From: Candidatus Freyarchaeum deiterrae
GTDB taxonomy: Archaea > Asgardarchaeota > Jordiarchaeia > Jordiarchaeales > Jordiarchaeaceae
Direction: 5' to 3'
Length of the DNA: 64,000 nt
Assembly: GCA_037305845.1 (NCBI GenBank)
Contig: CP147778.1
Coordinates: 1,504,001 to 1,568,000, forward strand
The notes beneath the pieces were generated by a model that had not been told where the DNA came from, searched no databases, and saw only the letters and a list, made by a program, of their open reading frames with translations. Below, in pieces: positions 739 through 44,153 of this stretch; the first letter of the stretch is position 1; each line of letters begins with the position of its first letter. The position numbers and the translations under genes are program-made.

Positions 739-836
739 GCCGCCGTAGCTCAGCTCGCAGATGCAAAAATGAAGCAGCCAAAAGCGTCAGACTTGTAATT
801 TGATGGTCACGCGTTCAAATCGCGTCGGCGGCTCCA
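739..836 (+). tRNA. tRNA-Thr(TGT) with one D-arm intron (22/23, 761-782); C at position 18
   Basis: Acceptor GCCGCCG/CGGCGGC+T+CCA. Anticodon arm TCAGA-CT-TGT-AA-TTTGA. T-arm ACGCG-TTCAAAT-CGCGT. Removing 761-782 restores the D stem GCTC/GAGC. Confidence 0.85.
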
Positions 837-954
837 CTTTCTTCTATATTAATTAACGAAAATAGGACAATTTGAACTTTTTTTATATGGTTTGAACCGA
901 AATAAATAATTCTGGAAAAGGAAAATGGCTCAAAAAGTTCGAGCCTTATTAGGG

Positions 955-1101
955 TGGTGCCGAGAGCCAGATTCGAACTGGCGACCTCCGGATCTCTTAT
1001 TCCTGGTTATCTGACCCCATTCTATACAAGATTATGAGTCCGGCGCTCTTTCCTGGGCGTATGGGCTAACCATAAGCCAAGCCAGGCTGAGCGACCTCGG
1101 C
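955..1101 (-). tRNA. tRNA-Met(CAT), elongator, two introns (D-loop ~1050-1080; 37/38 at 994-1032)
   Basis: Acceptor GCCGAGG/TCTCGGC+A+CCA. CCGGA-CT-CAT-A^A-TCCGG. T-arm GCCAG-TTCGAAT-CTGGC. G1-C72 argues against an initiator. Confidence 0.9.
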
Positions 1102-1285
1102 CCTAGTTTGTAGTTACATGATTGCCTTTTTGTAAGATAAATTTTTTCGTAGGGTTTTTAATTAGTGGATTTAACTGTTTTTTGGTCTTATTTTTTTATC
1201 CTAACTATTAAAGTTTATATGGGGAGTAGTTAAGCTCTTTAGGGGAGTGTTATATTTAAAATTTAGGATTCTTGGTGGGGTTTTT

Positions 1286-3646
1286 ATGAGGTTGGAGTTT
1301 TGGATACTGGATGTGGGTCAAAGGGTTGAGGATGGTGTTTCTAATGTTTTGATGTGGGGCGTTGATAGTGAGGATGGTAGAGTTTTGGTAATGGATGATA
1401 GTTTTCAGCCTTATTTTTATGTTATTCCAGAGGAAGGTGTGGATATTGGGGCGCTGGGTGAGTCTTTGAAGGGTTTGTCGATTTCTGATTCTCCTATTTT
1501 GGGGGTTGATGTTGTTAAGAGGAAGTTGTTTGGAAGGGCTCGGGATGTTATTAGGGTTGTTTTTCGGGATTTTGAGGATGGTTCGAACTATGTTAAAGCC
1601 TTTAAGAAAGTCGATGGTGTTGAGGATTTTCTCGAGGTGGATATTAGGCATTATGTGCGTTACTTGGCGGATAAGAGGATTCGTCCTTGTGGCTGGTATT
1701 CGGCTGAGGTTCAGGAGGTTGAGGGTTTAAAAAGTGGGGGGTATTCGGTTTATAGGCTTGTTGGGGATTTGAAGCCTGTGGAGCGTATGAATTTGCCTGG
1801 GCTGAGGGTGTTAGCTTTTGATATTGAGATTTATAGTCCTTCGGGGGCTTTGAATCCTGAGAAGGATTCTGTGATAATCATAAGTGTGGCTACTAATGGT
1901 GGTGTGGAGAAGCAGTTTGTGGCTAAGGATGGGGAGGATAGGGATGTTTTGAAGGAGTTCTCGGGGTATGTTACAGAGTTTGATCCGGATGTGATTGTGG
2001 GTTACGATTCTAATTTTTTCGATTTTCCGTTTTTGATTGATAGGGCGAAGAAGCTTCGTGTGAAGTTTACTGTTTGTAGAGATGGTTCGGAGCCGCATCT
2101 TAGTGTTTATGGACATGTTTCTGTTGCTGGGAGGGCTCACTTGGAGCTTTATGATATGGCGGAGATGGTGGTTGAGGTCAAAGTTAAGACTCTGAAGAAT
2201 ATTGCGGATTATCTGAAGGTGATGGCGAAGGATTCTCGTGTTTTGATAGAGCATGCTCAGATTCCGAAATATTGGGATGATAAGGATTTGAGAAAACAGC
2301 TTCTACTGTACGCAGCTCAGGATGCTAAGTCCACCATAGGGATTGCTGATAAATTGTTACCCACTGCGATTTCTATGGCTCAGGTTTCGGGTATGCCTCT
2401 AGATCAGGTTATGCGGGCGGGTGTTGGATTCAGGGTGGAGAATATGCTTCTTACGGAGGGGCATATGATTGAGGAGCTTATTCCTAATAAACCTGCGTTT
2501 GGTGGGGGTACTTATGCTGGGGGGTACGTTTTGCAGCCGGTTTCGGGGGTTCATGATAACATTGCGGTGTTTGATTTTGCGTCCATGTATCCGAATCTTA
2601 TGATAAAGTATAACATTTCTCCTGATACTTATGTGCCGCCGAATGAGAAAGTTTCTGAGGATGAGGTGAATATTGCTCCAGTGGTTGGGCATCGCTTCAG
2701 GAAGGAGCCGCCCGGATTCTACAAGAGGATAATTGAGGAATTAATTGCGGAGAGGAGGAAGATTCAGAAAGGCATGGAGAAATTGAATCCGCAAACATTA
2801 CAGTACATTATGATGAACGAGAGGCAGAAAGCGTTCAAAATTATGACAAACGCTGTTTATGGTTATTGTGGTTGGCTTGGTGCCAAATGGTATCTTAAGC
2901 CTGTGGCTGAAGCCACATCCGCATGGGGGAGAGAGATCATAAAGGAAACTATTGAGATGACTAAGAAGTACGGGCTTAAAGTGATTTATGCGGATACGGA
3001 TAGCGTTTTTGTAACTAATGTGAGTGGTGTTGCTGAATTTAGCCGGGAGGTTACGCAGAAGTTGGGGTTGGAAATAAAACCCGATAAATTATACAAGAGA
3101 GTCTTCTTTACCGAGGCGAAGAAGAAGTACGCTGGGCTTTTGGAGAACGATACACTGGATGTGGTGGGTTTTGAAATTGTGAGGGGGGACTGGCCCGAGA
3201 TTGCTAGGGAGGTACAGGAAAACGTGCTTGATATAATTCTTAGAGAGAAAGATTTGGAGAAGGCAATCAAATTTGTTAATGAAACCATCCAGAGGCTGCG
3301 GGAAGGCAAGGTTTCTTTAGATGAACTTGTGATCTGGGAGACTCTGACTAAAACTCCGGAGAAATACAAGGTTAAGGCCCCGCATGTGAGTGCAGCTAAG
3401 AAACTTATGGAGGCAGGAGGCCGCTTAGAAGCGGGTTCAAAGATAGGTTACGTGATAGGAAAAGGCCAAGGCAGTATTTCGGATAGAGCGATTCCCTACA
3501 GTCTAGCTGACATTGGTAATATTGACGTTGAGTATTATGTTGAAAGGCAGATTGCATCAGCAGCATTAAGAGTGCTTGAATATTTTGGAGTAAAAGAAAG
3601 CCAATTCACGGGTAAAAAATCTTCACGACAAACAAAGCTCAAGTAA
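1286..3646 (+). CDS. polB: Family B DNA polymerase (PolB3-like)
   Basis: Exonuclease motif DIE and polymerase motifs DFASMYP, KIMTNAVYGY, YADTDS are intact. ATG at 1286 follows a GGTGGGG RBS-like site. Confidence 0.95.
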   Translation: MRLEFWILDVGQRVEDGVSNVLMWGVDSEDGRVLVMDDSFQPYFYVIPEEGVDIGALGESLKGLSISDSPILGVDVVKRKLFGRARDVIRVVFRDFEDGSNYVKAFKKVDGVEDFLEVDIRHYVRYLADKRIRPCGWYSAEVQEVEGLKSGGYSVYRLVGDLKPVERMNLPGLRVLAFDIEIYSPSGALNPEKDSVIIISVATNGGVEKQFVAKDGEDRDVLKEFSGYVTEFDPDVIVGYDSNFFDFPFLIDRAKKLRVKFTVCRDGSEPHLSVYGHVSVAGRAHLELYDMAEMVVEVKVKTLKNIADYLKVMAKDSRVLIEHAQIPKYWDDKDLRKQLLLYAAQDAKSTIGIADKLLPTAISMAQVSGMPLDQVMRAGVGFRVENMLLTEGHMIEELIPNKPAFGGGTYAGGYVLQPVSGVHDNIAVFDFASMYPNLMIKYNISPDTYVPPNEKVSEDEVNIAPVVGHRFRKEPPGFYKRIIEELIAERRKIQKGMEKLNPQTLQYIMMNERQKAFKIMTNAVYGYCGWLGAKWYLKPVAEATSAWGREIIKETIEMTKKYGLKVIYADTDSVFVTNVSGVAEFSREVTQKLGLEIKPDKLYKRVFFTEAKKKYAGLLENDTLDVVGFEIVRGDWPEIAREVQENVLDIILREKDLEKAIKFVNETIQRLREGKVSLDELVIWETLTKTPEKYKVKAPHVSAAKKLMEAGGRLEAGSKIGYVIGKGQGSISDRAIPYSLADIGNIDVEYYVERQIASAALRVLEYFGVKESQFTGKKSSRQTKLK

Positions 3647-3747
3647 CAATTTTATTCTTCTTTTTTTTTGAGTTTTAAGGGGCGTTTAATTAAAGGCAAG
3701 TCACTGGAATATTCGGAATGATTCAGTGATTAATAATTATGTTTCTA

Positions 3748-43326: not shown

Positions 43327-43485
43327 ATTAACCTTACAAAACTAGTGTTTCCGCAAAATTAAAGCTCTAAAGAAAATTTTAGAGTCCGGCTTCGACCGCT
43401 GTTATTCTGGTTTCTTTTGCCCCTAAAAGTTAGCAATGCGAAAAATTTAATTATTTTAAAACAACTCCAATTTTAACACTACAAA

Positions 43486-43561
43486 GGGCGAGTAGTCTAG
43501 CGGTTATGACGTCGCCTTGACGTGGCGAAGGTCGCAGGTTCGAATCCTGCTTCGCCCACCA
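43486..43561 (+). tRNA. tRNA-Val(GAC), intron-less
   Basis: Uninterrupted cloverleaf: TCGCC-TT-GAC-GT-GGCGA, GCAGG-TTCGAAT-CCTGC, CCA. Confidence 0.95.
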
Positions 43562-43647
43562 ATCCAATTAGTTGTAAAAACAAAAGATTTAATAGGTTGA
43601 ATAAAAAACTTAATTTCTGCCGTCGTCCGAAATCTCCCAGAATAGGT

Positions 43648-43842
43648 GCCGTCGTAACTATTCACCAAGAAGAATAGCGACAAGCTTAGCCCGGGAGAGC
43701 GCCGGATACTGCCATAAGCATTGCAGAAGGCGAAACTGAAGATCCGGCTGTCGCTGGATCCTGCCAGAACCATTGACAGGAGGCGAATTCAAAGGGAATA
43801 GTGTTTGAAACACTATTCCTGAAACTCCGGCCGACGGCACCA
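43648..43842 (+). tRNA. tRNA-Phe(GAA), four non-canonical introns (9/10 at 43657-43683; 30/31 at 43706-43734; 53/54 at 43758-43787; 59/60 at 43794-43825)
   Basis: Acceptor GCCGTCG/CGACGGC+A+CCA. BHB helices GTCG/CGAC, CGCC/GGCG, CGCT/GGCG, TTCA/TGAA. Spliced CCGGA-CT-GAA-GA-TCCGG. Confidence 0.88.
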
Positions 43843-44046
43843 AAATGTTTATTTATTAGTATAAATATTTATTTTAAATATATTAACGAGGGTGGAGGTT
43901 AGGTAATTATCTATTTCTGGGAAATTTGCATACCTTACTTATTTTCTGCCAAAAAGGGTCGAGGAAATTATATTTTTGAATTTTAAATGATTGGTGCTTT
44001 CTTGGATTGTTGTACTTTTTTGTGATGTGTTTTTTAAAAGTAGGCT

Positions 44047-44153
44047 TGGTGCGGCTGCCGGGATTTTCAGAAAAGTGATTTTTCACTTTTTATTTGAACC
44101 CGGGTAACAAGCTTGGAGGGCTTGTGTCCTAGACCAGTCTGGACTACAGCCGC
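44047..44153 (-). tRNA. tRNA-Gly(TCC), one intron (59/60 at 44064-44092); C33
   Basis: Acceptor GCGGCTG/CAGCCGC+A+CCA. CAAGC-CC-TCC-AA-GCTTG. BHB TTCA/TGAA. Confidence 0.88.

Follow-up and report, generated by a model that had tools for sequence, protein, structure and literature searches.

How can a transfer RNA (tRNA) gene be interrupted at a point where the bases required by the splice motif are also required by the acceptor stem? The question is raised by a 64,000-nucleotide (nt) stretch of the Candidatus Freyarchaeum deiterrae genome (contig CP147778.1, positions 1,504,001 to 1,568,000 of the forward strand; the window below is this whole stretch), in which 14 tRNA genes lie between positions 739 and 44153 and two of these, tRNA-Thr(CGT) and tRNA-Phe(GAA), have an intron between tRNA positions 8 and 10. 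We describe a short sequence in the 5′ leader of such genes that can form a duplex with the 3′ acceptor strand of the same gene and, as a decoy of the true 5′ strand, probably leaves the latter free for splicing, together with a pair of tRNA-Phe introns that points to copying within one gene. Taken as a whole, an account of archaeal bulge-helix-bulge (BHB) introns served by a leader decoy is likely to be correct. The host genome is a complete single contig of 3,576,204 bp with 40.7% G+C, and Ca. Freyarchaeum deiterrae is indeed of the Asgard lineage that a first, sequence-only reading of the window had thought probable.

BHB introns in single-copy tRNA genes

Twelve of the 14 genes are interrupted and two are intronless, and the 31 introns (12–51 nt) are located at 8/9 and 9/10 (one each), the D-loop and D-arm (20/21 to 22/23, six), 29/30, 30/31, 33/34 and 34/35 (one each), 37/38 (six), 38/39 (one), 45/46 and 53/54 (two each) and 59/60 (eight), with four introns each in Arg(TCT), Ala(GGC) and Phe(GAA), which reproduces the counts, span and positions given by the sequence-only reading. 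Boundaries were curated by hand and then tested by script, with the BHB defined by a central helix of 4 bp that joins the ends of exon and intron, and by cuts after the second base of the 3-nt bulges; where boundaries were sequence-equivalent the best BHB was taken, and the null sets were allowed the same choice. The central helix was complete (4/4) in 25/31 introns and had at least 3/4 pairs in 29/31, compared to 4/4 rates of 2.8% for shuffled introns, 2.7% for introns moved within their host and 11% for introns placed at the site of another gene. Removal of the inserts in silico restored a cloverleaf, as had been claimed, with products of 75–88 nt having 20–21 of the 21 stem pairs and ARAGORN calling all 14 as tRNAs of the anticodon expected. 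The expectation that annotators miss such genes was likewise confirmed, with 2/14 window genes detected by unaided ARAGORN, 3/14 by Rfam, and 12/14 genes with 17/31 introns by the published tRNAscan-SE run (PMC11291895, Supplementary Data 4).

Judged by sequence, the window genes almost certainly carry archaeal BHB introns and are working, single-copy tRNA genes. That they are instead pseudogenes, or hold insertions which are never spliced, with the working tRNAs coming from elsewhere, is scarcely credible, as the complete genome has one gene per anticodon, and neither BLASTN against the genome nor a genome-wide search revealed an intronless duplicate of any interrupted window gene, the kind of copy that the sequence-only reading had named as the sign of pseudogenes. 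The near-complete stems and the lack of duplicates also differ from what defines tRNA pseudogenes, the BHB enrichment is strong, and the exons are kept across the congeners (G001–G005), with the introns diverging. Split or permuted tRNAs do not apply, since all exons are collinear with one locus per gene, nor do self-splicing group I or II introns, with their ribozyme core of hundreds of bases versus the 12–51 nt seen here; no intron match to Rfam was obtained within the window. Some features do speak for pseudogenes: a few introns have weak helices, with a relaxed 2/4 helix at Leu(TAA) 37/38 and Arg(TCG) 59/60, and Thr(TGT), the sole gene with this anticodon (739–836, forward strand; published with its one intron, 761–782 at 22/23), has an odd D-loop (753–760) in which C18, either a natural variant or a consensus error, replaces the G18 of five congeners and reduces the BHB helix to 3/4. 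A recent preprint (Goswami, Ghosh and Sinha, bioRxiv 10.64898/2026.10.13.758758) also states that Asgard tRNA splicing is so far without experimental data. From the sequences, the cloverleaves, the BHB enrichment and the enzyme genes we infer that splicing takes place, and in which order; the 37/38 helix of Ala(GGC), for example, is possible only once the 33/34 intron is removed.

The prediction that a set of this kind needs a broad-specificity splicing endonuclease is supported by the endA genes. The genome has two genes with an EndA domain, of which the alpha subunit contains the Tyr/His/Lys triad and has the Aeropyrum pernix alpha subunit as best PDB match (E-value 8e-43), with its loop aligning gap-free to that protein and its Lys matching K44 of A. 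pernix, while the beta paralogue lacks both the His and the loop. The Crenarchaea-specific loop with its conserved Lys gives A. pernix EndA its broad specificity (PMC6379350). RtcB is encoded as well, and the predicted host enzyme is the expected two-subunit, (alpha-beta)2 broad-specificity EndA system.

Probable leader decoys of genes with introns at 8/9–10/11

Introns at 8/9–10/11 (early introns) are present in only three of the 46 tRNA genes of the genome, two of them in the window (Thr(CGT) and Phe) and the third being initiator Met. The same three genes occupy ranks 1–3 of 46 when each 60-nt leader is scored for pairing with the 3′ acceptor strand of its own gene (chance 1 in 15,180). The Thr(CGT) gene (41248–41409, reverse strand) has introns at 8/9 (41401–41376), 37/38 (41347–41318) and 59/60 (41295–41265), and is preceded by a 12-nt leader decoy (41413–41424, reverse strand), invariant in G000–G005 (G000 being the Freyarchaeum genome), which forms 11 bp with positions 66–76 comprising the 3′ acceptor strand, discriminator and CCA. 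The Phe(GAA) gene (43648–43842, forward strand) has introns at 9/10 (43657–43683), 30/31 (43706–43734), 53/54 (43758–43787) and 59/60 (43794–43825), and its decoy (43618–43625, forward strand) repeats acceptor positions −1 to 7 without any change and pairs with 66–73. A TATA-like box (43588–43594, forward strand) is located ~30 nt 5′ of this decoy, a distance kept at 29–30 nt in four congeners despite differing spacer length, and a conserved leader hexamer (43633–43638, forward strand) is predicted to pair with D-loop/D-stem positions 18–23 of the Phe precursor. The leaders of early-intron genes are kept in the congeners, and genes of the same isotype without an early intron are also without a leader decoy, as seen for Thr(GGT) and Arg(TCG) of G000 and the initiator Met of the sister family. 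A Phe orthologue was not found in G002 or the sister family, and a metagenome scan with the Phe 5′ exon returned chance matches only. Reading the leader repeat of Phe and initiator Met as a fifth intron within the acceptor stem was rejected, with the best helix found by eye being 3/4 and lacking an inner helix.

The association was surveyed in 400 Asgard genomes and also in a species-wide collection, using search patterns which specify only a D-arm preceded by a non-U8 base and do not include the leader, and counting leader duplexes of −12 kcal/mol or stronger. Such a duplex was detected in 31/33 Asgard early-intron genes versus 0/81 other tRNA genes at these loci, and in 14/15 further archaeal genes (mostly Bathyarchaeia, one Thermoprotei) versus 0/8 controls, giving 45/48 versus 0/89 combined; a second D-arm pattern gave mostly noise with the exception of Arg(TCG) genes. 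Most genes have a TATA-like box 29–34 nt 5′ of the decoy, and the decoy should therefore be transcribed. In two genomes (G307 and G308) the leader decoy and first exon are duplicated in tandem 5′ of Thr(CGT).

The leader copies of Phe, initiator Met and some Thr(GGT) genes are exact repeats of the 5′ strand, and such copies may in principle be neutral remnants of short tandem duplications at the 5′ end, perhaps from intron gain, next to introns that are themselves real. The duplication in G307 and G308 is a genuine case of leader and first exon being duplicated together, and between genomes as close as G000 and its congeners the conservation of seven bases says little by itself. In many genes, however, the leader departs from the true 5′ strand and yet keeps or improves the pairing with the 3′ strand: the leaders track changes in the acceptor stem, including three different Thr(GGT) acceptor sequences, complement the discriminator base of their own gene and often the CCA too, and in some lineages provide a full pair where the true 5′ strand has a wobble. 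Because of this tracking, the match to discriminator and CCA and the replacement of wobbles, the leader appears to be selected for pairing with the 3′ end, rather than being merely a copy of the 5′ end. As leaders of this kind also recur across Asgard archaea, Bathyarchaeia and Thermoprotei, and then only alongside early introns, we consider a purely neutral origin improbable.

Folding models gave a BHB helix probability of ~0 without the leader in 33/33 genes and a mean of 0.46 with the leader, and mutation of the decoy in silico lowered this probability in 18/33 genes and raised it in none; the best fold of the Phe precursor has the decoy bound to the 3′ strand, with the 9/10 BHB formed. Since the BHB exon bases of introns at 8/9–10/11 belong wholly or partly to the acceptor stem, the two helices exclude each other and this stem has to be open during splicing. 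The precursor would refold locally, with four exon bases pairing with the 3′ end of the intron, and the leader, which starts near the transcription start, would pair with the 3′ acceptor strand and often also the discriminator and CCA, thus taking the place of the true 5′ strand, which would be left free for the BHB; after splicing, trimming of the 5′ leader would allow the true strand to take over. The association of leader and intron, their co-variation and the folding predictions make it quite likely that freeing the 5′ strand for the BHB is what the decoy does.

Several observations weigh against this interpretation of the leader. The BHB is unformed in the model even with the leader in ~14/33 genes, the Lys(CTT) gene of G398 has a 9/10 intron and no decoy, two genes have weak decoys, and the genes surveyed are related, so that the counts reduce to ~13–14 lineage-by-isotype units. 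After splicing, the two-dimensional (2D) fold favours the decoy over the true strand in most genes (in Phe by ~18 kcal/mol), and release therefore needs an additional step; in silico, the true acceptor stem returns when the leader is cut back by ~2 nt into the decoy, a trimming that may be the work of RNase P or of a 5′ exonuclease. The stability of the decoy conformer after splicing in the 2D models, and the many leaders spanning positions 73–76, would also suit a leader acting mainly in quality control, by masking the 3′ acceptor strand and CCA against end-processing or charging, with release of the BHB being incidental. This is unlikely to be its main role, although a little less so than a neutral origin, as the leader is found only with early introns, whereas the other introns would need equal protection, and the Phe decoy spans only 66–73; quality control and a role in splicing are not exclusive.

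Release of the 5′ strand by a leader decoy has a parallel in the split and permuted tRNAs of Nanoarchaeum, Caldivirga and Cyanidioschyzon, where pairing of the flanking leader or trailer likewise enables the BHB (PMC4090602). In those systems the leader itself belongs to the BHB and EndA removes it, whereas the Freyarchaeum genes are normal cis genes in which the predicted partner of the leader is the 3′ acceptor strand, so that exon bases are freed. No published description of the leader decoy was found in the literature searched, with most subscription papers outside its reach; the word 'leader' is absent from the preprint of Goswami et al., and the intron passages of PMC11291895 do not discuss leaders. 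As far as this search shows, the leader decoy, like the paired Phe introns described below, is unpublished.

Paired introns of tRNA-Phe and recent intron turnover

The 30/31 and 53/54 introns of Phe have 77–97% identity to each other within each of five genomes, the free hairpin included, and are the most similar pair at different positions among the 110 introns of the genome, followed by a weaker similarity between the Asp 45/46 and 53/54 introns. Four of the five genomes (G000, G001, G004 and G005) have species-specific variants that the two positions share, with G003 departing from this pattern, and in a tree the two introns of G000 group together, as do those of G001. The sequences thus suggest that one intron was copied to the other position, followed by repeated homogenisation. 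Nearly the same 4-base helix partner is required at both sites, and the comparison covers five genomes and sequences of 30 nt, so that similar BHB demands might also have led to the likeness by convergence; this is an unlikely origin, as the identity extends into the free hairpin, the variants are shared by both positions and the pairs of G000 and G001 cluster by genome. The preprint of Goswami et al. tested for copying between tRNA types only and not within one gene, and found none. Intron gains and losses are recent, with the Phe 59/60 intron being absent in four congeners and a Val(GAC) 59/60 intron being present in three congeners and absent from G000.

The multi-intron tRNAs and non-canonical BHB introns of Thermoproteales share with Freyarchaeum the BHB motif, the enzyme type, sites such as 29/30, 30/31, 45/46, 53/54 and 59/60 and the copying of introns to new positions (PMC4090602). 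Their load is lower, at 1.54 introns per gene in Pyrobaculum calidifontis versus 2.4 in Freyarchaeum, sites 8/9–10/11 are absent from the list of positions in that review, and copying in Thermoproteales is mainly between tRNA types. On balance we regard as probable the combination of a near-obligatory, leader-encoded cis splicing chaperone for introns at 8/9–10/11, evolved repeatedly in Asgard, Bathyarchaeia and Thermoprotei, with within-gene copying and homogenisation as a route of intron gain in Asgard tRNAs.

The tRNA gene catalogue and the published record

Heavy fragmentation and four-intron genes are already known for this genome. In its passages on introns, the study of Valentin-Alvarado et al. 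2024 (PMC11291895) gives 92–95% of tRNA genes as intron-bearing in Freyarchaeum and two other genomes, more than half of them with multiple introns, and its Supplementary Data 4 covers the same genome, with coordinates matching the contig base for base. This table lists 12/14 window genes with 23/31 introns, and four introns in Arg(TCT), Ile2 and Leu(GAG), while Goswami et al. report up to five per gene; the novelty of four-intron genes, and the maximum of three introns per archaeal gene given in the sequence-only reading, thus did not hold. The two window genes missing from the table are Ala(GGC) and Phe(GAA) with four introns each, accounting for the difference (23 + 8 = 31), and His, Glu(TTC), Pro(TGG), Leu(CAG), Ser(GCT), Ser(CGA) and initiator Met are missing as well. 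Furthermore, the table assigns Glu(CTC) to Met and Cys(GCA) to Ser(AGA), and Pro(GGG) has three introns there instead of the five read here.

Our genome census combined an intron-aware profile search (dynamic programme) of intergenic DNA with decoding by hand, which included parsing the adjacent introns of Ala(GGC) and Pro(GGG); intron position labels in His, Leu(CAG) and Ser(CGA) are approximate, with offsets of a few bases, and the anticodon of Ser(CGA), left untyped by ARAGORN, was read by hand. Each of the 46 standard anticodons was represented by a single gene, the selenocysteine gene being outside this count, and together these genes contain 110 introns (2.4 per gene), with eight genes having four introns. 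Pro(GGG) (1798836–1799053 of G000) has five introns, with a one-base exon between those at 24/25 and 25/26, a layout kept in G001, G002 and G004. The average agrees with the 2.2–2.4 intervening sequences per gene in the census of Freyrarchaeaceae by Goswami et al., who also described repeated gains, BHB enrichment and a two-subunit EndA. The lineage-specific accumulation of introns proposed from the window is supported. That census was limited to genes detected by tRNAscan-SE and, as its authors note, is blind to missed genes.

Among the other window genes, Glu(CTC) (41581–41739, reverse strand) has introns at 21/22 (41717–41702), 34/35 (41688–41673) and 59/60 (41648–41598). Its published reading as Met(CAT) was rejected, as this leaves no BHB and the acceptor stem is of the Glu type; the 4/4 BHB at 34/35, this acceptor stem and the three intron positions identical to those of its Glu(TTC) paralogue identify it as Glu(CTC), and the G001–G005 orthologues also read CTC. 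The 51-nt intron at 59/60 contains a 13-nt direct repeat, and the same-site intron is shorter in the congeners. Ala(GGC) (43141–43326, forward strand) has introns at 33/34 (43176–43209), 37/38 (43214–43227), 53/54 (43244–43274) and 59/60 (43281–43309), and Arg(TCT) (40068–40210, forward strand), published with four introns, has these at 20a/21 (40090–40103), 29/30 (40113–40127), 37/38 (40136–40147) and 45/46 (40156–40179). Gly(GCC) (23885–24048, forward strand) is interrupted at 38/39 (23923–23948), 45/46 (23956–23986) and 59/60 (24000–24031). Two introns each are present in elongator Met(CAT) (955–1101, reverse strand; 1080–1050 at 20/21 and 1032–994 at 37/38), Leu(TAA) (6026–6168, reverse strand; 6144–6124 at 21/22 and the relaxed 6107–6074 at 37/38), Arg(CCT) (7223–7341, reverse strand; 7319–7306 at 20a/21 and 7266–7240 at 59/60) and Arg(TCG) (9185–9311, forward strand; 9222–9243 at 37/38 and the relaxed 9266–9294 at 59/60), and a single one in Gly(TCC) (44047–44153, reverse strand; 44092–44064 at 59/60). 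The intronless genes are Thr(GGT) (6272–6349) and Val(GAC) (43486–43561), both on the forward strand. The window also contains a single-copy intergenic element of 200 nt (17669–17868) with 13-bp terminal inverted repeats and a predicted fold of −74 kcal/mol, for which no second copy was found in the genome and no Rfam match at 17500–18300.

Elsewhere in the genome (coordinates of G000 from here on), a four-intron His(GTG) gene (1921595–1921790) lies ~280 nt 3′ of the catalytic endA gene. A 5′-truncated second copy of Ser(TGA) (1598107–1598200), 20 kb from the intact gene, is possibly the attachment site of an integrated element, and a similar 5′-truncated copy of Leu(GAG) (about 1888900–1889092) has all four introns diverged. 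Ala(CGC) (1725052–1725167) has a 9-nt anticodon-loop insert, apparently too short for a BHB, and its likely G002 orthologue looks decayed, so this gene is possibly being lost. Archaeal Trp introns are known to carry box C/D motifs, and the 67-nt intron at 37/38 of Trp(CCA) (1426211–1426145) has apparent box C/D-like motifs. The 16S rRNA gene (1804896–1806517) contains an insert of ~93 nt near position 267 and one of 32 nt in a terminal loop near its 3′ end, the latter with a relaxed BHB (3/4), and these are possible rRNA introns.

The most fragmented genes, including those for the essential Phe, His and initiator tRNAs, are the ones that drop out of published Asgard tRNA sets. The paired Phe introns bear on how intron DNA arrives, which Goswami et al. 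stated as an open question. If our account is true, the leader decoy would be a new step in pre-tRNA processing, which would explain how introns can exist where splice motif and acceptor stem compete for the same bases, and would also provide a rule for finding such genes.

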